Positions 47,954-64,000 of a DNA stretch of 64,000 bases are shown in pieces (position 1 is the stretch's first letter; each line of letters opens with the position of its first letter). Both the position numbers and the translations under genes were made by a program. The notes under the pieces are model-generated. The model saw nothing but the letters and a program-made list of their open reading frames with translations, had not been told where the DNA came from and did not search any database. The stretch is from Enhygromyxa salina (lineage in GTDB: Bacteria; Myxococcota_A; Polyangia; Nannocystales; Nannocystaceae): contig NZ_PVNL01000139.1 in assembly GCF_002994635.1 (NCBI RefSeq), positions 18,055 through 82,054 of the forward strand, in the 5' to 3' direction.

Positions 47954-48607
47954 TCACGGCGAGTCGGGGCACGCCGCGTCGCCGCACACGAGGCTCAGCC
48001 CGTCGGGGCACAGCGTCGGCTCGCCCGCCGCACAGGTGTCGAACCGGCAGCCCTGCGTGCCCGGGTCGCCGTCGGGGCAGGTCAGCACGCAGCTCGAGCC
48101 ACTCTCGCAGTTAGCCGCACAGTTGTGGTCCGAGCACCGAAACGCGCACGCCGAGCCGGGGCCGCAGGTGCAGGTTCCGTTGGCGCAGGTCCCCGCGCAG
48201 TCGGGATTGTCGCCGGCGCAGGTGATGTGGCACGGGCTCGCGTCGCACAAGAACACGCAGCTGCTCCCGATGTCGCAGGTGCACTCGCCGTTGGCGCAGG
48301 TCCCCACGCAGTTGGAGCCGGGCTCGCAATCCACGTGGCACGGCGGCGCCGCACACTCGAACCCGCACGAGCTCCCGGGCCCGCAGGTGCACTCACCGTT
48401 GGCGCACTGGCCCACGCAGTCCGGGTTGTCGCCTTCGCAGTCGACGTGGCAGGGCGGCGCGGCGCATTCGAACTCGCAGGAGCTGCCTGCTCGACACACG
48501 CATGTGCCGTCGCTGCAGTCCACGGCGAGGGTACAGCCCGCGGCGACGCCGAGGGCGAAGCTGACGACGGCCGCCAGGGCCAGGTGCATGCGCTCAAACA
48601 TGATCAT
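47954..48607 (-). CDS. secreted Cys-rich protein with four roughly 38-aa repeats
   Basis: Signal MIMFERMHLALAAVVSFALGVAAGC. Repeats of C.CGPGSSC.FECAAPPCHVDCEGDNPDC.G.CANGEC. Confidence 0.55.
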   Translation of the reverse strand: MIMFERMHLALAAVVSFALGVAAGCTLAVDCSDGTCVCRAGSSCEFECAAPPCHVDCEGDNPDCVGQCANGECTCGPGSSCGFECAAPPCHVDCEPGSNCVGTCANGECTCDIGSSCVFLCDASPCHITCAGDNPDCAGTCANGTCTCGPGSACAFRCSDHNCAANCESGSSCVLTCPDGDPGTQGCRFDTCAAGEPTLCPDGLSLVCGDAACPDSP

Positions 48608-48844
48608 GGGTCCTCCAGTCTGGACTCGGGGACTGTCTTGTTCGGGGGGCGATCGAAGCCCCCACGCTCGACTCACCGGCCAACCTCGACTCACCGGCGA
48701 ACGAAGTCGACCTGCGCTCAATACACCTCGATGGGCGGCGCGAAGTTGGCCTGCTCCGTGCGGACGCGCACGGCCTCGCTGCGCTCAGCACCGACCACCG
48801 CCGGAAGCCCAAGCTAGCGCCGCCATTGGCTACGATGTCGATCG

Positions 48845-49996
48845 ATGAGCCGGCTGGTCTTCCACAGCATGTACCCGGACATGAAGCTGCCGGTGTCCGG
48901 AGAGCAGGTCCTGGGTCCGACCACGCTGCCCAAGCGGGCGCGCTCGTTCTGCAAGCCGATGACCGACGAGGTCCGCTCCGGCGTCTATCTTCACGCGCCG
49001 ATCGAGTTCGAATTTCGCCACAACCGCCAGACCATGTGGCTGCGGACCACGGTCGGCGATCTCCGTCACACGTCGATCCGCCACTTCGGCGTCACGGCCC
49101 GCGCCGACCTGCTGGTCAGCGATCTGTTCCCCGAGCGCTCGCGCGAGCTCCAGGCCAGGTTCCGCGCGGTCGCGATGGGCGCGGAGTTCCCCGACGATCT
49201 CACCGACGACCCCTGCTACCGCATCAATGACCGGCTGCTATCGGCGATCTCCGAGCCCGACGCTCCCGGCGGGATGGTCATCGTCTGGCTGGGCGGGACG
49301 CTCTACACCGAGGGCGACGACAAGCTGCTGATCAAGGGCGTGCCCAACCTCTACCAGCGCAACCGCTACGAGGTCCTCGACGCGATCATCGAGAGCTCGC
49401 GCTGGCACGGCTGGGTCGGCGCCGTGATCCGCAGCTACGACGAGAACACGTGGATCCCAGTCTCGGCCGCCGAGCCGTTCACCAAGGCGATGATCCTCGG
49501 CCCACGAACCGAGCTCGAGATCGTCCCCTTCGATCAGCTGCAGCGCGAGGTGCTCGTCGATCCGCTGCGCTGGAGCGACTTCGACGCGACCTACGCCCGG
49601 CCGCCGGGCAAGTACCTGCGGGACCTTCGACAGGGCGGAAGCTGGGACACCGAGTGGAAGAGCAAGCTCGACCTGCGCCCGCCCGCGCGGCTACCCTCGC
49701 CGCAGCTCGGCGCCCCCTCGACGCGGATCGCCGACGAGACCGAGCTGAGCTTCTTCGAGACGCGGCTGCGGCTGGTCGAGGATCTGCGCGCCGCGGACCG
49801 AGCGATCGAGATCCACCACAACGGCCGAGTCGCGCGCTTTGGTGGCGCCGACGCGTGCGAAGTCGTCGACGAGCTGTGCGCGTGGCCGCGGCTGTCGGCG
49901 GCCGAGCTGGCGACCCGGACCCCGTTCGAGATCGGCGAGCTGCGCGAGTTCTTGCAGCGCCTGGTCGAGGCCAGCGTCCTCAACCCTGTCGCGTGA
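48845..49996 (+). CDS. hypothetical protein
   Basis: 383-aa ORF with plausible composition. Convergent with the JmjC gene. Confidence 0.4.
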   Translation: MSRLVFHSMYPDMKLPVSGEQVLGPTTLPKRARSFCKPMTDEVRSGVYLHAPIEFEFRHNRQTMWLRTTVGDLRHTSIRHFGVTARADLLVSDLFPERSRELQARFRAVAMGAEFPDDLTDDPCYRINDRLLSAISEPDAPGGMVIVWLGGTLYTEGDDKLLIKGVPNLYQRNRYEVLDAIIESSRWHGWVGAVIRSYDENTWIPVSAAEPFTKAMILGPRTELEIVPFDQLQREVLVDPLRWSDFDATYARPPGKYLRDLRQGGSWDTEWKSKLDLRPPARLPSPQLGAPSTRIADETELSFFETRLRLVEDLRAADRAIEIHHNGRVARFGGADACEVVDELCAWPRLSAAELATRTPFEIGELREFLQRLVEASVLNPVA

Positions 49997-51353
49997 TCCG
50001 CAGCAGGCCATGCTCGACCATGACCCGCAGCAACGGCTCGACATCGGTCCAGGCGAAGCGCTCGTCTGCGTCGGTCCACGCGAGGGCGTCGGCGGCGACG
50101 AAGCGCTCGCGGGCGAGCAGCTCGCGGACCAGAGGTAGGGCCGCGACGGGCAGCGACAGCGACTTGGCCCCGGCGTGGAGCTCGATCGTGGGCGCGCGCT
50201 CGCGAGCCGGGCGCAGTCGGATCGGACAGCGACGATCAACCTCGAGCAGCTCGTCGCGCATGAGCTCGGGCACGGCGCCACGCGGTTGCGGCGGTTGGGG
50301 TGACGCGCAGGTCGAGGCCGACCACAGCTGCGTCAGCGTGTCCTCGTGGCGGTCCGGATCGGCGAGCAGCTCGGCGAGCGCCCCGAGTCGCCCGCGCATG
50401 TAGGCCCACAGCTCGTCGGTGGTCGTCACCCCTGCCCCCGCGGGCACCAACGGCGGCGGCCGACGCCACTCGAGCTCGCTACGCAGCTCACGCTCGAGCC
50501 ACACGTGCAGGAGATCGAGCACGCTGCGATCCTCGAGGAACAGGTTGAGCGCCAGCGAGTATCCGTGCGCCTCCGCGCGGTGCCAGGTCCCGGGCGGGAG
50601 GCACAGGAGGTCCCCAGGCTCGAGCGTGACCGACACGAACGCGCGCTCGTCGGGCGCCGCGGGTTGCTCCCACGCCTCCGGGGTCCGGCCGTGAGCGCGG
50701 CGCAACACCCGGACGCCGTCGCCGTCGATGTTGCAGTTGGCCCGCGGGTGCTCGACCGCCGGCGCTCGCCCGTACCGCCAGGTCTTGCTGCCCTCGAGCT
50801 GGATCGAGATCGCCGCGCGGGCGTCGAAGTGAGTCCCGAACCCGCAGCCATCGTGCGACAGGTAGCAGTTGACGCCGACGACCCCGGTGTAGCCGAGCTG
50901 CGCCCGGGTCACCCGCGCGAGCTCGGCCAGCTGGGCGTCGCGTCGCTCGACCCGGCTGACGCAGATCGTGGCGCCCGCGTCGAGGATCGGACCAATCGCC
51001 TCGTGGTTGACGCGAACCATCGGGATCGAGCGAGGCTCGGCGGCGCGATCGAAGCTCGCCTCGATCAGCAGCCCTTCGTCGGCGGCCGCGGCCTCGCGAT
51101 CGGCGAGCAGCGCGGCGCGCAAGTCCTCGAGCGAGAACAACCCCTCGACCTTGGCCGCCGCGCCGGGGATGTGTAGCGGCGCCCGGCCAAAGGCGCGGGC
51201 GAAGTCCTCGAGGCCGACGGGCTCGATCAACCGCGCGAACGCGTCCGGTCCGATCTCGCGGCGCATCGTCGAACGCGGCGCCGGGGTCGACGCGCCGCGC
51301 TCGCTGGCGAGCGCAGCGAACAGGGCCGAGAAGTCGATCGCTCGCGTGCGCAT
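49980..51353 (-). CDS. JmjC/cupin_4 family Fe(II)/2OG oxygenase-like protein
   Basis: Starts MRTRAIDFS (TGATG overlap with the upstream stop). Facial triad context GFGTHFDARAAISIQLEGSKTWRY ... PPGTWHRAEA. Confidence 0.7.
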   Translation of the reverse strand: MRTRAIDFSALFAALASERGASTPAPRSTMRREIGPDAFARLIEPVGLEDFARAFGRAPLHIPGAAAKVEGLFSLEDLRAALLADREAAAADEGLLIEASFDRAAEPRSIPMVRVNHEAIGPILDAGATICVSRVERRDAQLAELARVTRAQLGYTGVVGVNCYLSHDGCGFGTHFDARAAISIQLEGSKTWRYGRAPAVEHPRANCNIDGDGVRVLRRAHGRTPEAWEQPAAPDERAFVSVTLEPGDLLCLPPGTWHRAEAHGYSLALNLFLEDRSVLDLLHVWLERELRSELEWRRPPPLVPAGAGVTTTDELWAYMRGRLGALAELLADPDRHEDTLTQLWSASTCASPQPPQPRGAVPELMRDELLEVDRRCPIRLRPARERAPTIELHAGAKSLSLPVAALPLVRELLARERFVAADALAWTDADERFAWTDVEPLLRVMVEHGLLRITRQG

Positions 51354-52075
51354 CAGTCGACCGCCGCGAGCGGATCGGGGTTGGGGTGCTCGAGCCAGCC
51401 CCGCTCGGGCCGTGACCAGCCCCGCTCGGCGCCGCCGAGGGGCTTCGCCGCCAGCGCTGGCGTGGTGAACAGGCCCGTCCACGAGATGCGTTCGGCGCCG
51501 CTGCGGTTGGGCATCACGCAGTGCTCGACCCACGAGGGAAACAGCGCGAGGTCTCCGGCGGCCGGCTGGAGCTCAAACCACCTGGGCACGCTAAACGGCT
51601 CGAGGTCGAGCACGCACTCGCGCTCGACCCGGGTCAGGTAGGCGTCGGGGTTCTCGACCCGAAACCCGCCCGAACCCGGAGGCGCCTGAGCGTAGTAGGT
51701 CCCGCTGAAGGTCGAGCCCCCGTGGCCCCAGTGCTCGTGGGTGTGCGTCGCGCAGCCGGGCCCGCTGATGTTGACCCACAGCCCCACGTGCTCCCACGGG
51801 TGCGCCTGTGCTCGCCACCCGACTCGCGCCCACAGCGCTTCGATCGCGAGGTCGAACGCCGAGCGGAGGTCGGCGTAGTCCGGGGCGCGGTGCAGCTCGT
51901 CCTGGCTGTGCCAGGTGCTCTCGCCCTGGTAGTTGCGCCCTCGCGGATCGGCCCGACGTTCGGCCTCGGCCTGGGCCACGAGCGCCGCCGTGAGCGGCTC
52001 GTGCCCGTGCATGCGGACCAAGAAGCAGGGGATGCCGAAGGTGTCGAGTTCGATCAGCTCGGGGCGCAGGGACAT
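51353..52075 (-). CDS. putative 2OG-Fe(II) oxygenase-like protein (TIGR02466/PF13759-like)
   Basis: Starts MSLRPELIELD. Motif HTHEHWGHGGSTFSGTYYAQ resembles the HxH...SGVYY of that family. Confidence 0.4.
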   Translation of the reverse strand: MSLRPELIELDTFGIPCFLVRMHGHEPLTAALVAQAEAERRADPRGRNYQGESTWHSQDELHRAPDYADLRSAFDLAIEALWARVGWRAQAHPWEHVGLWVNISGPGCATHTHEHWGHGGSTFSGTYYAQAPPGSGGFRVENPDAYLTRVERECVLDLEPFSVPRWFELQPAAGDLALFPSWVEHCVMPNRSGAERISWTGLFTTPALAAKPLGGAERGWSRPERGWLEHPNPDPLAAVD

Positions 52076-52080
52076 GACGT

Positions 52081-53334
52081 TCACCGGCTTGCAGACGACG
52101 GGGACGCGACGACCTCGAGGATCTCGGCGGTCCACAGCACGCGCAAGATCGCACACAGCTCGCTGTCGCTGCGATCCAAGAAGCGCGCTCGCAGCTGCGC
52201 GAGGTCGAAGGCCGAGGCGCGCGCGCCGATCCAAGCGAGGACCTCGCGCGGGGCCGAGGACGAGGCGCGGATCGACAGCAGCACCGCGTCCTGCTCGTAG
52301 ACGACGAGCGTCACCCCGTCCCCGTCGTCGCGCCACTCGAAGCGAACGCCCGGGCGGAGCTCGAAGGCCGCGACGTCGGCGAGCAGCCCGGCGTCGCGGC
52401 CGAGCCCGCCGAGTAGGAGATCGATCGGCCGCAGCCCGGCGAGCTCGGCCTCGAGCGAGCGACGGTGGGCCGCGAGCTCGGCGAGCAGCGTCGCGCTGGT
52501 CAGTGACCCGGTCTCAATCGGTGCGCGCAGCTGCGGCTGCTCGAGCGACACGCGCTCGACGATCGCGCGCAGCAGCCCGCCCCAGGTCGGCGCCTCGAGC
52601 ATGATGTCGAGGTGGACCGAGTCGCTCAGCGGCGTCGTCGTGTGCCAGTAGCCCCGCGGCAAGAACAGGACCGATCCGGGCTCGAGCACCACGCTGTCGA
52701 GCGCCTCTGGCTCCCGCGCGTGGTCGAACAGCAAGACCTGCTCGAGGCTCGGGCTGGCGCCACCGAAGTGGTTGAAGGGCGGGTTCGGCACACAGGTGTT
52801 GGGCGCGTACTGCCAGCGCTTGCGGCCCGCGAGCTGCACGACCAGGCCCTCGCTGTTGTCCCAGTGCAGCGGCGGGGTGTGGGGCGAGCCCTCGCGGACC
52901 GCGAACAGGTTGCACGCGACCCGGGTCCGGGCGATCCCAAGCTCGTCGGCGAGGCGGCGGAGCGTCGTGGTCAGGCGCGGGAACCCGACGACCTTTTCGA
53001 GGTAGAGCTGCATCCCGGCCTGATACAGGGACAGCGCGCCGCTGACCTGGCGCTCGCTCAGCCGCCGCCCGCCGCCAACGCGCTCGGGGGTGAACGTGAC
53101 CTCGTCGCGGCCGAGCTGCAGGCGCGCGAGCTCGGCCTCGCCTGTGGTCAGCGCCGCGCTCGGGTCGACGAGCTGCTCGAGCTCGAACAGCGCGGCCCAG
53201 TCCGCGAGCGCGCCTTCGGCCACGAACGGACGGCCCGGCCAGTGCTCGCGCACGAAGCTCTCGCTGCGCGTGGGCGAGCCCAGCAGGGCCCCGAGGATCG
53301 ATGGCGGATCGAGCGCTTCGGCCATGGCGAGCAC
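52081..53334 (-). CDS. JmjC/cupin_4 family oxygenase-like protein
   Basis: PPLHWDNSEGLVVQLAGRKRWQY ... LPRGYWHTTT. Confidence 0.7.
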   Translation of the reverse strand: MLAMAEALDPPSILGALLGSPTRSESFVREHWPGRPFVAEGALADWAALFELEQLVDPSAALTTGEAELARLQLGRDEVTFTPERVGGGRRLSERQVSGALSLYQAGMQLYLEKVVGFPRLTTTLRRLADELGIARTRVACNLFAVREGSPHTPPLHWDNSEGLVVQLAGRKRWQYAPNTCVPNPPFNHFGGASPSLEQVLLFDHAREPEALDSVVLEPGSVLFLPRGYWHTTTPLSDSVHLDIMLEAPTWGGLLRAIVERVSLEQPQLRAPIETGSLTSATLLAELAAHRRSLEAELAGLRPIDLLLGGLGRDAGLLADVAAFELRPGVRFEWRDDGDGVTLVVYEQDAVLLSIRASSSAPREVLAWIGARASAFDLAQLRARFLDRSDSELCAILRVLWTAEILEVVASPSSASR

Positions 53335-53337
53335 CGG

Positions 53338-55650
53338 TCAGGGGGGCATCCGCCCGAGGCGGAGATCAGCGATTGTGAACGGTTCGCCGGCGCGACCGAG
53401 GCGCGCGCGGTAGTCGAGCACCCGATCCGGGACGTGGACTGGATGCGGGAGCGCGTCGAACATGCCCGTGACGACGACGCTGACCACGTGGACGCCGAGC
53501 TCCGGCGGCACCGGATAGGCGAACGCGCAGGCCTGCGTGCGCGGGCTGGCGGCGAGGATCCGCTGGACCACGACGTCGATGCAGCGGTCGATCGTGTCCC
53601 CGGGCGCGGCCGCGTCGGGCAGCGAGCTGGGGAGCTCGGCGAGCCTGCATGACCCCTCGATCCGCCCCCAGACCCGCGCGCGGTGCTCGTAGCTGTTGAG
53701 CACGCTCCCGCGGCTGCGGAGCGGGTCGCCGCGGTCGACGATCGCGTCGTAGCACAGGCCCTGGAACGCCTCGGTCAAGGCGCGACGCAGGGCGAGCACC
53801 GGCGAGAGGTGACAGCCGAGCCCGGTCGCCCAGTAGTTCACGTGGTCGTCGCGCGCACGCACGGCGGCCTCGACCACAGGGACACCGATGTCGTTGGTCA
53901 GGTCGCGCAGCTGGATCTCGTAGCCAGCCGCGTCGAGGGCCTCGATCACGGCGCGCGCGTGGACGTCGTCGACGCTGTCGAGCTCGACGGCGGCGAAGCC
54001 CAGCCCGGTCGCCGCCGCGGCGAAGCTCGCGTCGTGCTCGACGACCTCGAGCAACCCCTCGAGCACGGCCTCGTTCCAGGCGGTGCCGGCGGCGATGCCC
54101 GACGAACCACGCTCGGGCAGCACGAATTCGCTGCCGGCGAAGTCCGCACGCGCGAGCCCGTGGGCGCTGGCGGCGGGCAGCCAGAGCGGCCGGCGAGCAG
54201 CGAGGTCCGCGAGGTCGACGGCCTCGACCCAGTCGAGCATCGCGTCGGCCGGCCGGGGCACGCGGCCGCGCGGCTGGACCTGCGGCACCTGACCCGCGCA
54301 AAAAAAGTCGAGATCGAGGGTCGGAACGCCAAGCGCGTCAGCGGGCCCGCGGATGAGATCGAGGGGACCCACGCGACGGGCGAAGGTCTCCTCGAACCAC
54401 TCGTAGACCGCCGAGCACCACGCCTGGGCGGCGCTCAGGCCCTTGCCGAGCCCGCGCGCCTCATCGCCCGAGCACAGCCTGGGGTCACGGCGAAAGGGCA
54501 GCGTCGCGGAGACCTTCACGAACTCGATCTCCGCGAGCGCCGGGTGGCGGGCGATCAAGTCCGCCGGCCCGCGGGCGTGACGAATGTCGAGCTCGGCTCC
54601 GAGCTTGGCCAGCGCGCGCTCGCCGAGCGCTCGCGCGACGCTCGGCGGGACGCTGCGCAGGCCCGTGAGGACATCGACGACCTCTATCGAGCGCGAGCCT
54701 CCGTCGCGCTCGGGCTCGCTGGTGGTCGCCGTGGTCGAGCCTGCGATCGTCGAGATCGTGCGGACGAGCCCGCGACAGTGGGGGCAGCGGGTCATCGGTC
54801 CGATCGGTTGCCGACGCACGCGCCCGCCCCGGTCGACGACCGTCAGCGCCGTCGCGGGCTCCGGCGCGCGGTCGTCTGCGTAGGCGTCGAGGGCCGCCGC
54901 GATCGCGCCGACGAGGGTCAGGCGCTGGGCGAGCGCCCCCTCGACGGCCCCATCGACGGGCCAGACCGGGAGCGTGAGCTGGTCGAGCACGCCCACGGCC
55001 TCATGTGGTCGCTCGGGGAAGTAGTAGCGAGCCAGCCCGCACATCAGGCAGGGGGTGCGCGCGGGGATCATCAGCGGGCCGAGCACGACCTCGTCACCGG
55101 TACAGCTGACGAACAGCGCCTCGCGATCGGCAGCCAGCAGCGCGTCGGTCAGCGCGAGGGCGTCGCGCAGCGGACAACCGTCGAGGACCACCAGGCTCAG
55201 CTCCGGGCAATCTCCAGCGCGAACGGGCAACGCGAACTCCGTGGTCTCGCGCACGAGCCTGAGGTGGGCGCCGAGGTCCGCGAACAGCTCCGCGCCGAGC
55301 CGGCCCGAGCGGACCCCCGCGACCCGCAGCGATCCCAGCCCCGGCGAGCTCCTTGGCCGCTCGTTCGCGAGCCGGTCGACTAGCCGGTCGAGCACCACCT
55401 CGACGTCGCCCCGCTCGTAGCGGTGGGCCAGCGCCTCGACGGCGGCGTCTCGCGAGCCCGCGCTGTTCAGCGCGGCGAGCAGCTCGATGACGACCTCGGC
55501 GGGCATCCCCTCGATCTGGTGGAGGCGGCCGCCAGCGTGGAGCAGCACGCGACCAGCGTCGTCGGCCAGGACTTCGGCGAACTCGGGCGCGAGCGTCTGC
55601 AACGGCGCGCTCACCCGTCCCCCGATCGCGGCGCCGACAGGATCGGCCAC
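53338..55650 (-). CDS. fused cyclodehydratase: N-terminal E1/ThiF-like domain with CxxC pairs, plus C-terminal YcaO domain
   Basis: YcaO signature SSGIAAGTAWNEAVLEGLLEVVEHDA (compare SNGLAAGNTLEEAILQGLLELVERDA). N-terminal CLMCGLARYYF and CPHCRG zinc-ribbon-like pairs. 770 aa. Confidence 0.8.
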   Translation of the reverse strand: MADPVGAAIGGRVSAPLQTLAPEFAEVLADDAGRVLLHAGGRLHQIEGMPAEVVIELLAALNSAGSRDAAVEALAHRYERGDVEVVLDRLVDRLANERPRSSPGLGSLRVAGVRSGRLGAELFADLGAHLRLVRETTEFALPVRAGDCPELSLVVLDGCPLRDALALTDALLAADREALFVSCTGDEVVLGPLMIPARTPCLMCGLARYYFPERPHEAVGVLDQLTLPVWPVDGAVEGALAQRLTLVGAIAAALDAYADDRAPEPATALTVVDRGGRVRRQPIGPMTRCPHCRGLVRTISTIAGSTTATTSEPERDGGSRSIEVVDVLTGLRSVPPSVARALGERALAKLGAELDIRHARGPADLIARHPALAEIEFVKVSATLPFRRDPRLCSGDEARGLGKGLSAAQAWCSAVYEWFEETFARRVGPLDLIRGPADALGVPTLDLDFFCAGQVPQVQPRGRVPRPADAMLDWVEAVDLADLAARRPLWLPAASAHGLARADFAGSEFVLPERGSSGIAAGTAWNEAVLEGLLEVVEHDASFAAAATGLGFAAVELDSVDDVHARAVIEALDAAGYEIQLRDLTNDIGVPVVEAAVRARDDHVNYWATGLGCHLSPVLALRRALTEAFQGLCYDAIVDRGDPLRSRGSVLNSYEHRARVWGRIEGSCRLAELPSSLPDAAAPGDTIDRCIDVVVQRILAASPRTQACAFAYPVPPELGVHVVSVVVTGMFDALPHPVHVPDRVLDYRARLGRAGEPFTIADLRLGRMPP

Positions 55651-56759
55651 GGCGGCTCGGGCGTCGCCGCCGGATCCAGCCCACCGAGGCCGAACTCACC
55701 GACGATCGGCTCGCTGAGCGGATCGACGCCGGTGAGCCCGGCGAGCAGCTCGGTCTCAAACCCACCGCCGTAGGCACACGGGGCCAGGCCCAGCGCCGTC
55801 GCTACCAGATAGAAATACGCGTAGAGGCAGCCGACATCCTTGAGCTGGCTGACGTAGGCGATGTGATCGTACTTGTAGGCGACCCGCGCGATCCGGCTGG
55901 TCACGAGCAACACGATCAGCGGCAGCTTGGCGCCGCCCTTTGCGGCCGAGACCGAGGCACCGCGCTCGACGAGCTCGGCGATCAGCGAGGCCTCGGCCCG
56001 GAGGGGCTCGAGCGCGTGGCGCTGGGGGCAGTAGTGATAGACGTCGGGCGCGAGCCCCTCGACCGCGGCCGGTGACACGACCGGATAGATCTCGTGAGCG
56101 TAGAGCCCGCCCGCCGAGGGGTAGAGGCGGTGCTGGAGGACGCGACCGTCGTCGAGCTCGCGCGCGTCCCAGCTGCGCGCCGTCCAGTGAAAGAACTCGC
56201 CGAGCTGGTCCAGGCTGATGGTCGCGGTCGGCGGACTGAACGACCGGCGGCGCACCAGCACCTGCCAAAAATCGACGGCCGCGGGCTCGGGCTCCGGGAG
56301 CGCGATCGCCGTCGCGCTCATCGGTGGCTTGGCGTGCGGCTCGGAGCGCGTCAGGCCCTCGAAGCGATAGCGCGCGAGGGTCTGGGGCCGACACTCGCGA
56401 CTGTGTCGCTGCAGCGCGAGCTCGGGCGCGGCCCAGTAGCTCGACGGATCGAGGGCGCCGTCGACATCGGGCGGCCGTGACTCCTGCTCGGGTCGGACCA
56501 GGATCCCCGCCGCCTTCAGCGTCCGACAGGCCGCGATCACGTCGACCCCGAGCTCACGCGCGCCGCCGCTCGCCTCGACCTGTGCGGGGCTCGTGGGCAC
56601 GCGAAACCAATGCAGCACTTGCACGAGCGCGGCGTCGTCACAGACCAGCGCCTTGCCCGTGCGAAGGTTGCGGACGACCAGCTCACCCACCTCCCATGTC
56701 ACCGTGGTGAAGCGAGAGATCCGCAGCGGCTCGGTCGGATCAAGTTCCATCTCGCTCAT
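55611..56759 (-). CDS. SagB/McbC-type FMN-dependent dehydrogenase (nitroreductase fold)
   Basis: Starts MSEMELDPTEPL in an ATGA overlap with the upstream stop. YPSAGGLYAHEIYPVV matches the SagB-type dehydrogenase signature. Confidence 0.65.
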   Translation of the reverse strand: MSEMELDPTEPLRISRFTTVTWEVGELVVRNLRTGKALVCDDAALVQVLHWFRVPTSPAQVEASGGARELGVDVIAACRTLKAAGILVRPEQESRPPDVDGALDPSSYWAAPELALQRHSRECRPQTLARYRFEGLTRSEPHAKPPMSATAIALPEPEPAAVDFWQVLVRRRSFSPPTATISLDQLGEFFHWTARSWDARELDDGRVLQHRLYPSAGGLYAHEIYPVVSPAAVEGLAPDVYHYCPQRHALEPLRAEASLIAELVERGASVSAAKGGAKLPLIVLLVTSRIARVAYKYDHIAYVSQLKDVGCLYAYFYLVATALGLAPCAYGGGFETELLAGLTGVDPLSEPIVGEFGLGGLDPAATPEPPWPILSAPRSGDG

Positions 56760-57598
56760 TCGGGCAGCCCGAGCTCGGCGGCCTTGGGGTAGACCTCGCG
56801 CCGATAGCTGGGTTTGTTGGCGAACGCGAAGGGGACCGACATGAAGGTGCCGAGCGACAGGCGCAGTTGCTCTCGACGGCTCGGCGCTGGCACCACCGCG
56901 CGACTGATCGCCGAGTGGAACTGCCAGCCGGGGTACACGACCGTCCGATTGCAGCGTTGGCGCACGAGAGCCAGCCGCTCCCACGCGTCGGCAGCAACCT
57001 CGCCGCCGACCCGCTGCCGCCAGATCTCCGCCTGCAGCTGCTGAAGGTCGGGTCGCGGCAAGGCCTCGATCGCGGCCGGCAGCTGCGCGAGGAACTCCAA
57101 CCCGAGCAGCTCCTGCAACCACAGCAGCTCGACCGGATCCTTGTCGCTCATCCAGCAGGTGAGCCCGGTCGCTCGGTGGCGCCAAAACGCTGTGCCCTCG
57201 TCATCGTGGTCGGTGTCTGACAGGTAGGTGACCGCCGCCAACCACACGTCGTGATCCGCGTGCTGATCAATCAGATCTGAAGGACGCTCGCGCAGCCCGA
57301 GCGCCGACGCGTAGAAGTCCGCAGCGATCACGTCGAGGTCGATCGCCTTCGGGTAGCCCTCGGGCCACAGCTGGTCGAGGATCACCCGCGCGAGCAGCTC
57401 GACGAACGCCCGCCCCCCTATCGGAGACACGCGCGCGCGCAACCCGGGGTAGCCCGAGTCCGGGATCGCGTAGCCCTGCTCGAGCGCGGCCTCGCGGACC
57501 TGCTCGATATCGACGAAGGTGTCGTCGATGACGGCGATCACGGACCCCGCTAGGCGGAGGACTTCGACGCGACGCTGAGAATTAAGCTCGAGCCTCAT
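56756..57598 (-). CDS. hypothetical protein in RiPP-like operon (ATG at 57598 proposed; the ORF track begins at a TTG at 57610)
   Basis: Translationally coupled to the SagB-like gene. Its start codon lies in the 3' arm of a 12-bp hairpin. Confidence 0.4.
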   Translation of the reverse strand: MRLELNSQRRVEVLRLAGSVIAVIDDTFVDIEQVREAALEQGYAIPDSGYPGLRARVSPIGGRAFVELLARVILDQLWPEGYPKAIDLDVIAADFYASALGLRERPSDLIDQHADHDVWLAAVTYLSDTDHDDEGTAFWRHRATGLTCWMSDKDPVELLWLQELLGLEFLAQLPAAIEALPRPDLQQLQAEIWRQRVGGEVAADAWERLALVRQRCNRTVVYPGWQFHSAISRAVVPAPSRREQLRLSLGTFMSVPFAFANKPSYRREVYPKAAELGLPE

Positions 57599-57628
57599 CC
57601 GAATACCCAATGGATTGGATGAGGCTCG
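57589..57628 (-). promoter_or_regulatory. perfect 12-bp stem hairpin between the precursor and downstream genes, sequestering the downstream ATG
   Basis: cgagcctcatcc-(16 nt)-ggatgaggctcg. The ATG of the next gene is inside the stem. Confidence 0.35.
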
Positions 57629-57718
57629 TCAGCCTAGGCCGAGCACCAGCGCGAGAGCCCGTGGGAGCACCCATTCGGCTCATTTGGTTCCCCGGCGGCG
57701 CAGCCCTCGGCAAATTGC

Positions 57719-57874
57719 CTAGCGGTCGACGCCCACGGAGCCGTGGTTGCCGGAGCGCGACCAGCCGGCCTCGACCTTGCCGCCCTTGATCTTCTCCGTG
57801 GTCTCGCGATCGAGCTCGCGGATCTCGAGGTCTTTGATGTTCAGCTTGCGTTTGGGCTTGTTCTCGTCTGTCAT
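57719..57874 (-). CDS. candidate RiPP precursor peptide (51 aa): Lys-rich leader, GG motif, short Gly/Ser-rich core
   Basis: MTDENKPKRKLNIKDLEIRELDRETTEKIKGGKVEAGWSRSGNHGSVGVDR. AGAGGGAAC ribosome-binding site 7 nt upstream. AT-rich codon use against the GC-rich background. Located between the YcaO/SagB/JmjC genes. Confidence 0.6.
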   Translation of the reverse strand: MTDENKPKRKLNIKDLEIRELDRETTEKIKGGKVEAGWSRSGNHGSVGVDR

Positions 57875-57969
57875 TTTCGTTCCCTCTATTCTCGTGCTGC
57901 TATCTGGGCAACTTCGACCTCCGCAGGCTACTCGACCGCCAAACTTGCGCGCAAGGGTTTTCGCTCGCC

Positions 57970-59154
57970 TCAGGCCTCGCCTCGGACCCGCTGGAGAACC
58001 CCAGCCGCGGACAGGGCCGCGAACAAGTCCTCGAGCCAGGGCCAGAGCGAATCGGGGCAGTCCCAGAGCAGCGCACCGACCGGGGCCGGGCCTGACGACT
58101 GGGTCTGTGTCAGGCGCTCGAGCAAGCGATCGAACCACGGCAACTCCTCAATGGAGGCACCGATTGAATAGCTCATATGATCGCCGCAACTACGGATGTG
58201 GAAACGACCATCCGAGTCTACGCTCAATGTTACGTCTTCGTGAAGTGCCCACGACCCCGCCAACGTGTCGGGGAACGGCCCATATACCAGTTGGTCCACC
58301 GAGAGACAAGTGATCAGTTGTGTGATCGTTGGGCCGAGGGCGCGGAGATCGGCGAGCGAAGCGTGCGCAAGGTTCGCAAAGGACAGCTCTCGCAATCGCG
58401 GGTCGCGAACGATCTCCCACTCGATCAGCGACGAGAGCCGGGCGGCCAAGCTCGCCGGGCTGATCACGAACACGAGCGCGAGGCTGCGCGCCGAGCTGAC
58501 CTGCGTGGTGTGCCACAGGCCGCGCGGGAGCCACAGGGACTGGCCAGCGGCTACGGTCTCGACGGCGTCAAACGGACCGAGCGTGGGGCTCGGCTCGACC
58601 TGGGGATCCCGCGCGGTCCCGTCGGGTCGCCGCGCGAACCGCTGCCAGACAGGGTCGCGCCACTCGATCACGTTGGTGTTCGTCGGCGGGTGGATCTGCC
58701 AGCGCTTCTCGCCGTGCAGCTGCACGTTGAGACCGCAGTCGCGATCAAAGTGTAGATGTGCCCCGGAGCCTCGCGCACCCGCGAAGATCTCGACTCGCGA
58801 CGCCGAGGGCATGAAGTCCCCAACGGCCTCGCGGACGCGGTTGAGATAGCGCCCGAGCGCGGGAATGACTCGATGACATTCGTGGAAATACAGCGTCGCG
58901 CCAGCGCGGTGGGCGGCGAGGGCGGCCCGCGGCTCGAGCTTTTGTGCGCCCCGCATCCGCTGGCCGTCGGTGTGCCACACGGACACGCGCGCAGCGGGAG
59001 CTTGGCGCTCGAACAACGCACACACGGCCTCGACGTCGGGCAGCAGCACGACGAGCTCGGCGAACATGGGGTCGTCGTGGCAGTCGGCGCGGACGACCTG
59101 TGTCGGCCAGTCCGGGGCGGCGGGATCGACCCCGAACACGGCGCGAGTGCTCAT
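57970..59154 (-). CDS. JmjC/cupin_4 family oxygenase-like protein
   Basis: Starts MSTRAVFG (ATGA overlap). AHLHFDRDCGLNVQLHGEKRWQI ... LPRGLWHTTQ. Confidence 0.7.
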   Translation of the reverse strand: MSTRAVFGVDPAAPDWPTQVVRADCHDDPMFAELVVLLPDVEAVCALFERQAPAARVSVWHTDGQRMRGAQKLEPRAALAAHRAGATLYFHECHRVIPALGRYLNRVREAVGDFMPSASRVEIFAGARGSGAHLHFDRDCGLNVQLHGEKRWQIHPPTNTNVIEWRDPVWQRFARRPDGTARDPQVEPSPTLGPFDAVETVAAGQSLWLPRGLWHTTQVSSARSLALVFVISPASLAARLSSLIEWEIVRDPRLRELSFANLAHASLADLRALGPTITQLITCLSVDQLVYGPFPDTLAGSWALHEDVTLSVDSDGRFHIRSCGDHMSYSIGASIEELPWFDRLLERLTQTQSSGPAPVGALLWDCPDSLWPWLEDLFAALSAAGVLQRVRGEA

Positions 59155-60065
59155 CGCAGCGATCCGAGGTAGTCGCGCTCGAAGATCGCCAGGACCGCGG
59201 CGCGCTGCGGCGCCGACAGCTGACGCAGGTACGCCTCGTCCCCAAACGCATACTCGATGCTCCGCCACGTCGCCGCCAGCGCGGGCGCCCGCTGCTTGAG
59301 CGTGAGGCTGAGCGAGGCCTCGACGCTCTCGACCCAGTGCCAGATCGGGTTGGGCATGAACAGCGCCTGCCCGGGCTCGAGCTCGACCTCCCAGCAGTGC
59401 GAGCCCGCGAAGTTGGGATACTGCTCGAGGTCGACGCCCGGGAGATCGATGACCTGGGAGCTGCGCGTGCGCCAGTCAGTGACCGGGAAGGGGTAGAGAT
59501 CGGCGGTGATCGGCGCGAGCACGACCCGCTTGCGACCCTGGAGCTGGACCAGGAAGCCCGGGGTCTGGTCGTAGTGCAGCGTCGTGATCGCGCCGGCTTG
59601 CGACAGCCAAGCGCCCTGATCTTCGCAGCCGTCCATTGGCGCGGGCAGTGATCCGAGCTGAGCGCGGAGCTCGGCGTGGACCCGACCGCAATACCAATAG
59701 ACGACCTCACCGGGCGCGACGAGGGGCGGGCGCGCGCCCGGGTTGGTGATCCGGTCGATGATCTCGGGCAGCGGGAGCACGAACGAGTGGTAGCGACCCT
59801 CGGGCTGCGAGCGCTCCGACGGCGCGCGGTGGGGATCGAGGCGTGCGTCGTTGAGGTACAAGAAGGCGCCGCTCGGGCTGACCCAGCACTCTTCTCGCCA
59901 GTCACGCAGCCAGGCCTCGAGGTGGGTGAATTCCAGCGCCACGTTGTCGCGGCGCGAGACCTCTACCACGTAGGGCTCGCCGGCGACGGCGAACGCTTCG
60001 TGTCGCTCGCCAGCTTGCTCGACGTCGAGGATCGAGACCGCGCGGGTTTCACCAAACGCTCGCAT
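59151..60065 (-). CDS. JmjC/cupin_8-like hydroxylase
   Basis: Starts MRAFGETRAV. TLHYDQTPGFLVQLQGRKRVVL ... MPNPIWHWVES. Confidence 0.65.
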   Translation of the reverse strand: MRAFGETRAVSILDVEQAGERHEAFAVAGEPYVVEVSRRDNVALEFTHLEAWLRDWREECWVSPSGAFLYLNDARLDPHRAPSERSQPEGRYHSFVLPLPEIIDRITNPGARPPLVAPGEVVYWYCGRVHAELRAQLGSLPAPMDGCEDQGAWLSQAGAITTLHYDQTPGFLVQLQGRKRVVLAPITADLYPFPVTDWRTRSSQVIDLPGVDLEQYPNFAGSHCWEVELEPGQALFMPNPIWHWVESVEASLSLTLKQRAPALAATWRSIEYAFGDEAYLRQLSAPQRAAVLAIFERDYLGSLR

Positions 60066-60166
60066 GCCAGCGATTCGAATGATCGAGCATCGAGTCGGCA
60101 GAGTCAAACTCGACGACGACGATCGCCGCTTCTCCGCTACTCTCGGTCGACTCTCGCCGTCGGCAC

Positions 60167-61945
60167 ATGCTCGATCCCACCTTACAAGTCTGCTCCATTG
60201 ACGGGGTCTGCTACCTCGTCTTCGACGATCGCGTGCTCGTCGTCGAAGGGGTATCGGCTGACGCGCTGCGGCGAGCGCTACGACGACCCGAAGCCGAGCT
60301 CGACACCGACCTGCGAGCGGTGCTCGAGGTGTCGGCCGAGCAGCACGCCGAGGGCAGCGCACCCTGGGCTGGGGCTTGGGTTGGGACTCGCCGCGGGCCC
60401 GTGCTCGCCGCTCGCGTCACCGTGCTCGGTGACGGACGGCTCGCCCGCTGCGTGGCTGACGAGCTCACCCGCGCGGGCGCTCGGGTGCTGACCAGGCCCG
60501 ACGCGGGGCCCGAAGCAGCGGGCCTCGAGCTCGACGTCGACCTGGTGTTTTGCTGCCTCGAGGGCGCGTCGTACGAGCGCCTGCTCGCGCTCGAGCGGGC
60601 GGCCGCCCGCGCGACCTCGCCACTGGTGTTCATCACCGTCGGCGCCCAGGCGCTGAGCTTCGGCCCACGCGTTGGTGCTCGCTCGCGCGGGTGCCTGGCG
60701 TGCAGTCGCGGCGCGCTGCTGCCGATCCCCGCGCAGCTCGCCCAGAAGCTGCTTTCGCAGCTGCACACCCACACCCTCGACGACGGCGCCGCCGCGCAGA
60801 TGGTCGCCTGCGCCGCTGCGGCGCTCGCCGTGCGCGAGCTCGAGGGCCGGGCCCGCGAGTCCGACGAGACCGTCGTCGAGCTCGCGTGGACGGGTGAGCG
60901 CCAGCGTCACCACATCGCCTGCAGCTGCCACCCGACCCGCGCGGCGACCGATCCAACGACTCACACCGCACCCACCCGGTGCGCGACCGTCGAGCCGAGC
61001 CTGGCCTGGGCCGAACTCTCGCCGCGGCTGCAGGCGCTCGAGCTCGCGCTCGCGGGCCCCGATGACCGAGATCCGCTCGAGCTCCTCGACCCGGACGTGC
61101 CCGCGATGCTGCGCGAGCTCGTCGTCCGCCACGCCGACGATCTCGACCACGCGACTGGAAGCTTCCGCGCCCACCTCGAGGGCACCTGGCGCGCGCTCGT
61201 TGGATGGCGACAGCCGCGGATCGTCTGTCGCGCGGGCCTGTTTCACAGCTGCCTCGCGACCAGCTACTACGAGCGCGCGCTCTACCGCCCGTGGGAGCAG
61301 CGCGCCCTCGCCCGCGCCATCGGCCCCGAGGCGACGACGCTGGTCCACTTGTTCTGCACGATCGACCGCCCCGCCCTCCACGACGAGCTCGACGCGGTCG
61401 ACGAGCTGCCCGCTGCCGCCACGCCAGTTCGCAACCGCCACACGGGCGAGCGGGCGTTCGTCCCGGCCCGAGTCGTCGCCGCGCTGCTGCTGATCGAGAT
61501 CGCCAACGTCGCCGAGCAGTCCGGGGGCGACGACGGCATGCCGAGCGCGTGGATGGCCCGGGCCTCGCGCTGGACTCAATTGGCGACGCCGTGGCTCAGC
61601 CCCGCGCTGCCGATCTTCGATCGCGGCACGGCGCGGTTGTCCGAGACCGACGAGCGCGCGGCGATCGAGGCCTACCACGTAGCGATCGAAGTCCTCGAGC
61701 GTGACGCCGACGCGGCCCAGTCCGCGCTGACTCGCTGCGCCGCGCACAACCCCTGGGTCGCCGAGCCGTGGCTGCTCCAGGCCCTGCTCGCCGAGCGCCG
61801 CGCTGACCTGAGCGCGCGCACGCAGCTGCTCGACGCCGCCGAGTCGCGGCTCGCGAGCTGGCCGCTCGCGTGGGACAAGCGTTACCCCGGGACCCAGTGG
61901 CGGGCGCTGGCCCACGCGCTGCGGCGAGGTCCTACTCGGTCGTGA
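60167..61945 (+). CDS. putative RRE (PqqD-like) + E1/ThiF-like Rossmann domain protein with C-terminal helical domain
   Basis: N-terminus SIDGVCYLVFDDRVLVVEGVSADALRRAL is RRE-like. VTVLGDGRLARCVADELTRAGARV matches a Rossmann fold. CLACS. Confidence 0.45.
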   Translation: MLDPTLQVCSIDGVCYLVFDDRVLVVEGVSADALRRALRRPEAELDTDLRAVLEVSAEQHAEGSAPWAGAWVGTRRGPVLAARVTVLGDGRLARCVADELTRAGARVLTRPDAGPEAAGLELDVDLVFCCLEGASYERLLALERAAARATSPLVFITVGAQALSFGPRVGARSRGCLACSRGALLPIPAQLAQKLLSQLHTHTLDDGAAAQMVACAAAALAVRELEGRARESDETVVELAWTGERQRHHIACSCHPTRAATDPTTHTAPTRCATVEPSLAWAELSPRLQALELALAGPDDRDPLELLDPDVPAMLRELVVRHADDLDHATGSFRAHLEGTWRALVGWRQPRIVCRAGLFHSCLATSYYERALYRPWEQRALARAIGPEATTLVHLFCTIDRPALHDELDAVDELPAAATPVRNRHTGERAFVPARVVAALLLIEIANVAEQSGGDDGMPSAWMARASRWTQLATPWLSPALPIFDRGTARLSETDERAAIEAYHVAIEVLERDADAAQSALTRCAAHNPWVAEPWLLQALLAERRADLSARTQLLDAAESRLASWPLAWDKRYPGTQWRALAHALRRGPTRS

Positions 61946-62783
61946 CGAACTCGGGGTGGACGAGATCGAGCCAGTCGCGGTGGTCCTCCTCGACCCACAG
62001 CCTCAGGCCCTTCTTGTTGAGCTGGCGACCGGGGATCTCGCGACCGAAATTCGACAGGCAGTAGCGACACGCCTGCAGCGGCTTGGACGAGCGCAGGTAG
62101 GCCTCGAGCTGCTCGCGCAGCTCCGGGTTGGCGTGGAGCGCGATCGAGTCGGCCTCGCGATTGTCGAACTCGACGCCACATCGACGCAGGCGCGGCTGCA
62201 TCCACGGCGCGGGCGAGCACTTATAGTAGCGCCCCGCGTAGACCGTGTGGCACGACCACTCGTGGGTCTGGGGGCAATTGTCGTAGATCATCTGTACGCT
62301 CGCGTCGTCCTCGATCGCGTGATTGAGCACCGTGACCCGCATGTTCGGTGTGTCCTTGACGAACAGCTCGAAGCCGTGGGCCTCGGCCCGGGCCTCCACC
62401 TGCGCCCGGCTCATTCGATACTTGACGCCCGGATACACGCTCCACCACAGCCGATCGATCGAGGCCCAAAACGGCTCCGGGACGCGGTCGAGCAGCACGC
62501 CATTGGTCACTACCGTCACGCACTCCGCGATCGGCGAGGCCTTGGCGGTGGCGATGAACTCGAGCAGGTCGGGGTGCAGCAGTGGCTCGCCACCGAGCAG
62601 CTTGAGCTCGTGGGTCCGCATGACCCCGGCGAGCGCGTCGAGATCGCGGCAGAAGCTGGCGTGGTCCAGGAACGCCTTGGCCATCAGCGGCGAGGCGTGA
62701 TCGCAGCCGTAGCAGCTGAGGTTGCAGTGCTCGGTGAGGTTGAACTCGACCGAGGCGACGCGGAGGAGGGGCGCTGAAGTCAT
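61932..62783 (-). CDS. radical SAM enzyme
   Basis: CNLSCYGC (CxxxCxxC) 4Fe-4S binding motif plus additional Cys (CRYC). Confidence 0.75.
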   Translation of the reverse strand: MTSAPLLRVASVEFNLTEHCNLSCYGCDHASPLMAKAFLDHASFCRDLDALAGVMRTHELKLLGGEPLLHPDLLEFIATAKASPIAECVTVVTNGVLLDRVPEPFWASIDRLWWSVYPGVKYRMSRAQVEARAEAHGFELFVKDTPNMRVTVLNHAIEDDASVQMIYDNCPQTHEWSCHTVYAGRYYKCSPAPWMQPRLRRCGVEFDNREADSIALHANPELREQLEAYLRSSKPLQACRYCLSNFGREIPGRQLNKKGLRLWVEEDHRDWLDLVHPEFVTTE

Positions 62784-62795
62784 GACGGCTCGCGC

Positions 62796-64000
62796 TCAGG
62801 CAGGGGGGTGAGGCTCTTCGTTGCGTCCGAGAAAGATCGTCGTGTCGACGCTGCCCTCGACGCTGGCGACGAGACCCGCGTGGCAGCATCGCTGGATGAC
62901 CCCGAGGGCGTCGACGCTGTCGTCGACGAGCTCCGCGAGCGCGGCGTCGAGCTCGGTCAAGCTCAGCTCGCGCCCAGCGAGCGCGGCGTAGAGCGCCGCG
63001 AATCCTTCACTGACCTGCTTGGCGCTGGCCTGACCGCGGATCCACAGCAGGCAGCCGGGCCCGACCGACGCGGGCAGCGGGTGGACCTCGTAGGCCTCGC
63101 GGGGATGAAAGCGCACCCGGGCGCTCGCGGGCACATCGCCCGCGAGGATCCGGCCGTACCAGCCGCCGAGCTGCCGACGACGGCGGATCTCGTCGTTGAG
63201 CTGGCCGTATCCGCGGGTCAGGCGAGCCCGGTCCTCGGCTCCGAAGCCCCCGGCCGCCGTGAACGCGACGGTGTTGACCTGCTGGTGGGAGGCCGAGTCG
63301 TTGTCGCTGGTCGGACTGCGGTCGTAGAGAATCGTGAGCCCGAAGCGCTCTGGCTCGCGGCCCATCTCGGACGAGCTCGTCAGCGTGAAGTACGAGACAT
63401 TGAAGTAGCTGACCACGTCGGTGTAGCGGCTACAGAACGCGAGCACCTCCTCGGCCTCGGCAAGCGTCGTCGTGGGGATGTCGATGATGACGTTGACCAC
63501 GAGCTGCAGGCGATCACCCGCGTCGAGCTCGCGCACGGTCGCAAAGAAGCGCTCGATGTCGGCGCGCCGATAGCCCTTGGCGATGTAGTCGAGCAGGCGA
63601 TCGTTGGCGCTCTCCATCCCGATCGTCAGCGCCCACCTGGCGCTGCGAGTCATCGTGCGCAGGACCTCGAGGGTAAAGCGCGCGTCGATGTAGGCGTAGC
63701 ACCAGATCGAGATGTCTTCGATCCCCCGCTCACCCAGCGCGGCGCCGAGCTCGGCCGCGTGGCGGGGCGGGAGCGCGTCGGTGATCAGGTCGAACTGGCG
63801 AAAGCCCCGGCTACGAAAGTACGCGAGGTCGTCTGCGACGTCATCGCTGCTGCGCGGGCGATAGCGCGGATCGTCGCTGAGGTTGATATAGTCGCAAAAC
63901 GTGCACTTTCCCCAGTAGCAGCCCTTGCTGTGCAGGACCGAGAGCACCGTCGACTCACGCTGGTCGGCGGGCAGCTCGTAGCGAAAGTGGTCCTCCTTGC
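62796..64000 (-). CDS. B12-binding radical SAM enzyme (class B-like), N-terminus beyond the right edge
   Basis: CYWGKCTFCDY radical SAM motif. The reading frame stays open upstream through the window end. The M shown in the ORF track is an internal GTG. Confidence 0.7.
   Translation of the reverse strand, partial: KEDHFRYELPADQRESTVLSVLHSKGCYWGKCTFCDYINLSDDPRYRPRSSDDVADDLAYFRSRGFRQFDLITDALPPRHAAELGAALGERGIEDISIWCYAYIDARFTLEVLRTMTRSARWALTIGMESANDRLLDYIAKGYRRADIERFFATVRELDAGDRLQLVVNVIIDIPTTTLAEAEEVLAFCSRYTDVVSYFNVSYFTLTSSSEMGREPERFGLTILYDRSPTSDNDSASHQQVNTVAFTAAGGFGAEDRARLTRGYGQLNDEIRRRRQLGGWYGRILAGDVPASARVRFHPREAYEVHPLPASVGPGCLLWIRGQASAKQVSEGFAALYAALAGRELSLTELDAALAELVDDSVDALGVIQRCCHAGLVASVEGSVDTTIFLGRNEEPHPPA

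Follow-up and report, generated by a model that had tools for sequence, protein, structure and literature searches.

A minus-strand open reading frame (ORF) of 51 codons at 57719..57874 of the window, by which we mean the whole 64,000-nt stretch of Enhygromyxa salina contig NZ_PVNL01000139.1 analysed here, is a real gene, and it probably encodes the precursor (A) peptide of an E. salina operon for a ribosomally made and post-translationally modified peptide (RiPP). As judged from its sequence and that of its homologues, the gene is under protein-level selection, lies inside an operon of enzyme genes and encodes a leader of the double-glycine (GG) type. The precursor assignment draws on the ORF itself, with its ribosome-binding site and its GC content at third codon positions (GC3), on the gap that it occupies in the operon, on synteny with E. 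salina DSM 15201, on the constraint seen in a distant homologue (P0004), on the GG leader, and on a leader-binding domain in one of the enzymes.

Protein-level constraint on the peptide gene

The ORF begins with ATG at 57874, ends with TAG at 57719-57721 and translates to MTDENKPKRKLNIKDLEIRELDRETTEKIKGGKVEAGWSRSGNHGSVGVDR (51 residues). The first-pass annotation, made from the letters alone, had its sequence exactly right; the gene is on the minus strand, and the plus-strand frame at these coordinates is meaningless. The ribosome-binding site claimed for it is indeed present, as a Shine-Dalgarno-like GAGGG at 57882..57886 (minus), 7 nt 5' of the ATG and identical in DSM 15201. Residues 1-32 (57779..57874, minus) form the GG-terminated leader, and the core, previously counted as 18 residues, consists of the 19 residues that follow Gly32 (residues 33-51, 57722..57778, minus; KVEAGWSRSGNHGSVGVDR). 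The reading frame stays open 5' of the ATG as far as a GTG at 58138. When the window is aligned with DSM 15201, indels appear in both flanks of the ORF and none within it; those upstream of the ATG are of 2, 2 and 1 nt, and the confinement of these frame-breaking changes to the region upstream of the ATG supports the ATG as the start. No sigma-70 promoter was found near the ORF.

Since there are 184 ORFs of at least 40 aa in 24 kb, the size of a 51-aa ORF alone carries no meaning here. Its composition is more telling. The overall GC content of the ORF (0.628) is low compared with the 0.68-0.73 of neighbouring genes, as the first-pass annotation had recognized in calling its codons atypically AT-rich, but the choice of codons is not atypical: GC at the first, second and third codon positions is 0.58/0.385/0.92, and a GC3 of 0.92 means that synonymous codon choice is typical of this 69%-GC genome. 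The low overall value arises because a leader rich in Lys, Glu, Asn and Ile lowers the first two codon positions (GC2 of the leader is 0.28, whereas GC3 of the core is 1.00). G or C occupies the third position in 48 of the 52 codons (binomial P ~1e-6 against the ORF's own GC), and of the 82 ORFs in the window that start with ATG and are 40-70 aa long, this is the sole one with GC3 >= 0.92 and GC2 <= 0.40. Such periodicity of GC content with codon position is itself evidence of coding.

The ORF is already called in GenBank in two E. salina strains, although it is unnamed. The window peptide is identical to PRP94814.1/WP_181234522.1, "hypothetical protein [Enhygromyxa salina]", and PRP94814.1 shares its 200-kb contig with the YcaO protein PRP94811.1. 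A possible second copy in the window, a 9-residue match at 28469..28495, was rejected, as it falls inside a 372-aa protein.

The closest homologue of the peptide is that of E. salina DSM 15201 (P0001, DB30_04622), which is also 51 aa long, is 92% identical and occupies the same position in a syntenic cluster, so that the homologous short ORF beside YcaO and JmjC genes that had been proposed as a check does exist in a related genome. The cores of the two peptides are identical, with 0 non-synonymous and 2 synonymous changes. A more distant homologue, P0004 (MKNSTTNPAPKKKLEIEEIEIKELSTEELGKVSGGKVSQWERAGNGQTAGVDR; 49% identity), was found with phmmer at E = 3.5e-5 among 1.84 billion representative proteins; it is encoded on a 509-bp, 53%-GC deep-sea metagenome contig (JAOPTP010186254.1, metagenome tPB_BHT04, SRR21695763) from a study of marine paperboard degradation (PMC11980830). 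Over the aligned codons, P0004 and the window ORF share 52% nucleotide identity, distributed as 55/67/33% over codon positions 1/2/3, and different codons are used at 12 of the 26 positions that are identical between them (start and stop included). This pattern argues for constraint on the protein and not for conservation of the nucleotide sequence. The precursor reading has thus withstood the refutation set for it, namely that the ORF would be absent from syntenic clusters or conserved at the nucleotide level only: the ORF is kept in the syntenic cluster, and its conservation in P0004 is at the protein level.

Across the three homologues, the invariant residues of the leader are P7, K8, K10, L11, I13, E17, I18, E20, L21, E24, K28, G31 and G32, and those of the core are K33, V34, W38, R40, G42, N43, G48, V49, D50 and R51, followed directly by the stop. 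Ser46 is replaced by Thr in P0004, and Ser39 and Ser41 are not conserved.

The peptide family is extremely rare, only these three sequences having been found among ~15 billion predicted proteins. A word-indexed search of 5.8 billion proteins with the peptide returned only the DSM 15201 peptide, and a three-sequence profile run in the same way returned that peptide and P0004; the full phmmer search of the 1.84 billion representatives added only P0004. A scan of a genome collection for the peptide again found only DSM 15201, and there was no match either in a metagenome scan with leader patterns or in a tblastn search of plasmids. Six metagenome matches to the back-translated core pattern W-x-R-x-GN-x4-GVDR-stop have neither a GG leader nor an ORF, and we regard all of them as chance. 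The YcaO protein of the operon is similarly isolated at the stringent threshold of E <= 1e-20, at which a word-filtered search, scoring only the 8000 candidates that shared most words, gave two matches: the window's own protein and its DSM 15201 orthologue.

The enzyme operon and the GG leader

The peptide gene is part of a compact, nine-gene, minus-strand operon that runs from 60065 down to 49980, as annotated with Pfam and NCBIfam and with the starts of genes adjusted to those called in DSM 15201. The first gene encodes a 304-aa JmjC/Cupin_8 oxygenase (59151..60065; Cupin_8, 5e-20; start mapped from DSM 15201), and a 394-aa JmjC oxygenase (57970..59154; JmjC_2) is encoded directly upstream of the peptide gene. 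On the other side of the peptide gene are those for a 280-aa DUF6445 protein (56756..57598; PF20043, 1e-16), a SagB-type flavin mononucleotide (FMN) dehydrogenase, the azoline-to-azole oxidase (55611..56750; TIGR03605, 1.9e-38, 131.7 bits against a cut-off of 78.4; start mapped from DSM 15201), a 770-aa fusion of an E1-like leader-binding domain with a YcaO cyclodehydratase (53338..55650; Pfam YcaO, 8.7e-45), a 417-aa JmjC oxygenase (52081..53334; JmjC_2, 2.7e-15), a 243-aa PF13759/TIGR02466-type 2-oxoglutarate (2OG)-Fe(II) oxygenase (51353..52084; Pfam, 1.8e-17; TIGR02466, 80 bits against a cut-off of 62.5) and, as the last gene, a 457-aa JmjC oxygenase (49980..51353; JmjC_2, 5.7e-15). The YcaO, SagB and JmjC enzymes that had been guessed near the peptide from the letters alone are therefore those that the curated families identify. 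The enzyme genes abut or overlap, and the only sizeable gaps in the operon flank the peptide gene, 95 nt before it and 120 nt after it. Genes on the opposite strand bound the operon, one for a DUF6817 protein (60167..61945) and one for a 383-aa protein (48845..49996). No other conserved candidate small ORF was found within the operon; the one called at 60055..60180 (43 aa) extends into the region of the divergent starts.

The fused E1-like/YcaO gene is co-oriented with the peptide gene, which lies ~2 kb upstream of it in the same operon. Residues 178-324 of the YcaO protein match TIGR03882, "TOMM precursor leader peptide-binding protein", at 42.4 bits against a cut-off of 36.9. Among its relatives of solved structure are TruD and LynD, fused cyanobactin heterocyclases that share its length and architecture; the top relative is MJ1094, with TruD and LynD close behind. 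MJ1094 is named only "Uncharacterized protein MJ1094" in its PDB entry, and we take it to be a YcaO protein of the thioamidation type. The DSM 15201 YcaO gene differs from that of the window by an insertion of ~230 nt (L001 14325..14558, against window ~53627; 858 versus 770 aa), and RefSeq also holds a 617-aa version of the window protein, the start of which is uncertain.

The iron-binding HxD...H triad is intact in 4 of 4 JmjC proteins of the operon. With the PF13759 protein, we arrive at a predicted tally of five Fe/2OG oxygenases (four JmjC and one PF13759), from which the DUF6445 protein is set apart. The closest solved relative of the JmjC protein encoded at 57970..59154 is Bacillus subtilis YxbC/1VRB (E 6.7e-15). 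The AlphaFold2 (AF2) model of the JmjC protein encoded at 52081..53334 is of low confidence (predicted local distance difference test, pLDDT, 49); for its C-terminus (52084..52437, minus; pLDDT ~50-60), the model has 3-4 beta strands and then three helices. This order is that of the RiPP recognition elements (RREs) fused to JmjC domains (PMC12710340), but no Pfam family matches this C-terminal region and an RRE has no support there at the sequence level, so that the model offers only a hint of an RRE-like C-terminus.

Two radical S-adenosylmethionine (radical-SAM) genes lie upstream in a separate transcription unit (61932..62783 and 62796..>64000, both minus; Pfam Radical_SAM, with weak matches of the TIGR03975/HpnJ type) and are syntenic in the window and DSM 15201. 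The second of them runs off the window; its DSM 15201 version has 704 aa and features like those of B12-dependent radical-SAM (B12-rSAM) methyltransferases. These enzymes may also take part in tailoring.

Between the peptide gene and that for DUF6445, the RNA can form a hairpin with an 11-bp stem (GAGCCTCATCC ... GGATGAGGCTC; 57590..57627, minus), the 3' arm of which contains the DUF6445 start codon (57598). The fold of the surrounding 153 nt (57570..57722, minus) has a predicted energy of -70.5 kcal/mol and a z-score of -2.97, and neither arm differs in DSM 15201 over the aligned part. We found no T-tract terminator near the peptide ORF or the hairpin, and no Rfam family within the window. 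The hairpin may act in attenuation, mark a site of processing or mask translation; speculatively, it may attenuate or stabilize transcripts and in this way set the ratio of precursor to enzymes.

The double-glycine end that had been proposed for the leader is borne out, as GG31-32 and the KV that comes directly after it are invariant in the three sequences. Double-glycine leaders have the consensus LSxxELxxIxGG, with hydrophobic residues at -4, -7, -12 and -15. The window leader has Ile at -4, Thr at -7, Leu at -12 and Ile at -15, DSM 15201 has Met at -7, and the P0004 leader (ELSTEELGKVSGG) matches the consensus fully: L(-12)S-T-E-E(-8)-L(-7)-G-K-V(-4)-S-G-G. The only families that the three peptides match are those with GG leaders (PF14406, TIGR04149, PF10439, ComC and TIGR01847), all below threshold: the window peptide reaches 17.9 bits with PF14406 (E = 0.0038; cut-off 25), the DSM 15201 peptide 20.6 bits with TIGR04149 (cut-off 25) and P0004 13.1 bits with TIGR01847 (cut-off 15.7). 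We conclude from these matches that the peptide probably works like a double-glycine leader peptide without being a member of a curated family, in agreement with the first impression that it has no obvious likeness to a known precursor family. Cleavage after the GG by a peptidase-containing ATP-binding cassette transporter (PCAT) is plausible. That the leader is helical, as also suggested, finds some backing in a short AF2 helix at residues 23-30, but the prediction is weak (pLDDT ~74 for residues 11-30, and a mean of 62 over the whole peptide).

The transporter that had been named for this cleavage, a C39 peptidase-ATP-binding cassette (C39-ABC) protein at 43077..45257 (minus; Pfam), does have its catalytic motifs intact (Cys in DCGAAC, His in NHFVV), but it is part of a neighbouring, non-syntenic graspetide operon that has a GG-leader precursor of its own. 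Its nearest match is TIGR03796, the NHLP bacteriocin exporter, and it lies outside the syntenic block shared with DSM 15201 (48750..64000). It is probably not the cognate transporter and, for cleaving the 51-aa peptide, ranks as a secondary candidate at best. In DSM 15201, another C39-ABC gene, with one for HlyD, lies ~8.3 kb upstream of the peptide gene; the equivalent region of the window would lie past position 64000. The two C39-ABC proteins are 42% identical over the C-terminal 123 aligned residues. The DSM 15201 genes upstream of the syntenic cluster (L001 1..2907) are for this C39-ABC protein, an HlyD-type adaptor and a UDP-glycosyltransferase, and may represent the cognate exporter and a glycosylation step.

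Proposed maturation and alternative readings

If the 51-aa peptide is the precursor, its leader would dock on the YcaO protein, at the E1-like/RRE domain, and perhaps also on the C-terminal domains of JmjC enzymes. The oxygenases would hydroxylate side chains of the core, most likely at the invariant Lys33, Trp38, Arg40, Asn43, Asp50 and Arg51. The known targets of JmjC enzymes in proteins include Lys, His, Asn, Asp and Arg. Among RiPP pathways there are precedents for JmjC peptide hydroxylases in CzlI, acting on Phe (PMC11575548), and BipG, acting on Orn (PMC12707348). The YcaO and SagB proteins would convert Ser46 into an oxazol(in)e; this is the sole conserved Ser/Thr position. The three Ser residues previously put forward as azole candidates are all there in the core, but only the Ser46 position is kept (as Thr in P0004); in Enhygromyxa, YcaO and SagB may also act on Ser39 and Ser41. 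Modifications may be added by the upstream radical-SAM enzymes, and a C39 peptidase-ABC exporter would remove the leader after Gly32 and secrete the product. The likeliest exporter would be the one found ~8 kb upstream in DSM 15201, which here would be beyond the window's end. The chemistry of the product is in its entirety our inference, and what we envisage is a heavily modified peptide.

The closest described system in the literature that we searched is the curacozole/YM-216391-type, cyanobactin-like azole RiPP cluster czl, with its precursor CzlA, YcaO protein CzlD, oxidase/E1 proteins CzlBC and JmjC protein CzlI (PMC11575548). Like the E. salina operon, it combines a small precursor gene with those for a YcaO protein, an FMN oxidase, an E1-like component and a JmjC-type Fe/2OG hydroxylase, and YxbC/1VRB, the nearest solved relative of the JmjC protein at 57970..59154, is also the top structural homologue of CzlI (PMC11575548). 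However, czl has one JmjC gene where the E. salina operon has four and at least one more 2OG oxygenase, and, unlike in czl, the E. salina core has no run of Cys, Ser or Thr, the leader is of the double-glycine type, and no macrocyclase or protease is seen. The czl host is a Streptomyces and not a myxobacterium, and a likeness of the two precursor sequences was neither looked for nor noticed.

Linear azol(in)e-containing peptides and thiazole/oxazole-modified microcins (LAPs/TOMMs), such as microcin B17, streptolysin S and plantazolicin, resemble the E. salina system in combining YcaO, E1-like/RRE and SagB components with a small, leader-bearing precursor. LAP cores are dominated by Cys, Ser and Thr; in contrast, the E. 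salina core has three Ser in 19 residues, one of them conserved, and its enzymology appears to be mainly oxidative (five or more oxygenases). To GG-leader precursors (PF10439, PF14406, TIGR04149, TIGR01847; NHLP/Nif11-type TOMM), the E. salina peptide is alike in its leader of ~30 residues with a GG end, in the hydrophobic residues at -4, -12 and -15 in the window peptide (and at -7 in two homologues), and in the presence of C39-ABC and HlyD genes nearby; the core, by contrast, is unrelated to these families. In biphenomycin biosynthesis, the JmjC ornithine hydroxylase BipG modifies a ribosomally made precursor peptide at a basic side chain (PMC12707348), and Lys and Arg are invariant in the E. 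salina core; unlike the E. salina operon, that pathway has a multinuclear non-heme iron-dependent oxidative enzyme (MNIO), a B12-rSAM enzyme and an arginase-like enzyme, and no YcaO. The E. salina genome-mining paper lists no RiPP biosynthetic gene cluster (BGC) for strains other than SWB007 and does not describe the YcaO/JmjC cluster, nor did we find a description of it elsewhere in the literature searched. In our view, the system belongs with the azole-type RiPPs; its leader is of the PCAT type, and its predicted oxidative tailoring is exceptional.

Several observations weigh against the peptide being the precursor of this operon. None of the precursor models curated in Pfam or NCBIfam reaches its threshold with the peptide. 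The operon itself (49980..60065) contains no protease or transporter gene, and the C39-ABC protein inside the window belongs to another operon. With no Cys, no Thr and one conserved Ser/Thr position, the core is poor in heterocyclisable residues and unlike typical azole peptides. Synteny with DSM 15201 is by itself weak evidence, because the whole block from 48750 to 64000 is 94-95% identical at the nucleotide level, and the flanks of the 509-bp P0004 contig hold nothing related to the genes of the window, so that P0004 comes without neighbours. Finally, the DUF6445 protein, which we considered as a further oxygenase, has no relative of solved structure in the PDB, and hhalign against the PF13759 protein gave a probability of 0.1.

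That the ORF arose by chance, in the intergenic DNA of a GC-rich genome, would fit the abundance of random ORFs of such size in the window, yet its combination of GC3 (0.92) and GC2 (0.385) is unique among the 82 comparable ORFs, it has no indels between strains, and P0004 (E = 3.5e-5) shows a coding-type substitution pattern; we consider this explanation effectively refuted. A stable hairpin containing the DUF6445 start codon 3' of the ORF lends some appeal to a regulatory role for the ORF, as a short upstream ORF or leader that controls translation or transcription of DUF6445, SagB and YcaO through that hairpin and is not itself a substrate. However, what is kept at very different GC is the protein, including its C-terminal GVDR-stop, and not the DNA; regulatory upstream ORFs rarely keep a 50-residue sequence, and a GG leader motif has no role in attenuation, all of which makes a regulatory role highly improbable. 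Only slightly less improbable is a GG-leader peptide (class II bacteriocin-like or a signal) that is exported by a C39 transporter and is not a substrate of the surrounding enzymes. Its leader resembles the bacteriocin/ComC type, at sub-threshold scores, and there are C39 transporters nearby, but the gene sits within the enzyme operon, on the same strand and between JmjC and DUF6445/SagB/YcaO genes, the leader-peptide-binding domain of the YcaO protein needs a peptide substrate, and the operon offers no other conserved small ORF as a candidate for it.

An unlikely but more serious alternative keeps the peptide as the precursor of this operon and questions the simple conversion of Ser to oxazole by the YcaO protein: beta-hydroxyls installed by JmjC enzymes (on Asn, Asp, His, Trp, Arg or Lys) would be cyclised to 5-substituted oxazoles, or the backbone would be activated to amidine or thioamide. 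One conserved Ser/Thr position, set against the invariant K, W, R, N, D and R, would fit such chemistry, as would five or more oxygenases for a 19-residue core and the rank of MJ1094, presumably of the thioamidation type, as the top solved relative of the YcaO protein, with TruD and LynD following closely. On the other hand, no TfuA or sulphur-transfer gene is seen among the annotated neighbours, the SagB dehydrogenase points to ordinary azoline oxidation, and CzlI, the JmjC enzyme of the one studied YcaO and JmjC cluster, made Tyr from Phe and not a beta-hydroxy residue (PMC11575548). In its boldest form, which we likewise hold to be doubtful, the operon would define a new RiPP class in which five or six Fe(II)/2OG oxygenases oxidise the 19-residue core almost exhaustively at its invariant Lys/Trp/Arg/Asn/Asp/Arg, and YcaO and SagB then use the installed beta-hydroxyls, and not only Ser/Thr, to make unusual 5-substituted oxazoles; if true, hydroxylase-enabled heterocyclisation would be a general route to new azoles.

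To our knowledge, no ribosomal natural product is known from E. salina. A correct precursor assignment would identify what a very rare biosynthetic operon acts on. In this operon of a marine myxobacterium, azole-forming enzymes are joined by unusually many JmjC and 2OG peptide oxygenases, and the assignment would also yield several new hydroxylases of peptide side chains whose substrates are defined. With the 19-residue core and the likely site of cleavage, the product could be predicted well enough to guide targeted mass spectrometry and heterologous expression. The value of the assignment is thus practical, in natural-product and enzyme discovery, and does not lie in conceptual surprise.

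The neighbouring graspetide operon and other genes

The C39-ABC gene at 43077..45257 belongs to a graspetide operon on the minus strand that is separate from the YcaO operon and is not adjacent to the YcaO cluster in DSM 15201. Its precursor, at 47266..47502 (minus), is plesiocin-like, with a GG leader (MSNNKTDKKQLKDLYIEDLGQVTGG) and four cores of the TTxxxxEE kind, namely TTLAIGEED and its variants; in the mechanical ORF list, this gene starts too early (TTG at 47607, 113 aa). Downstream of it lie an ATP-grasp maturase gene (46225..47238, minus) and two HlyD genes (45254..46285 and 42169..43080, both minus). Plesiocin, a group 2 graspetide of Plesiocystis pacifica, is characterized by the TTxxxxEE motif (bioRxiv 10.1101/2021.03.09.434688), and the likeness to it holds for this neighbouring operon only, as the 51-aa peptide has no such motif. 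A resemblance between the leaders of the 51-aa peptide and the graspetide precursor was seen by eye only and was discarded, as BLASTP finds no alignment between them.

Between the two RiPP operons is a Cys-rich ORF of 255 aa (47954..48721, minus) with ~4 repeats resembling C..G..C.F.C...PCH..C...CANGxCTC; it has no Pfam match, is not syntenic in DSM 15201 and has an unusually high GC2 (0.67). Elsewhere in the window, a 1079-aa protein encoded at 30003..33242 (plus) is a bacterial protein like the Major Vault Protein (MVP), with a match above cut-off to the MVP shoulder domain PF11978 (E 1.3e-26) and a weak match to the Vault_3 repeat as well, and a 759-aa protein encoded at 21461..23740 (plus) is a cytochrome P450 fused to two cyclic-nucleotide-binding domains.

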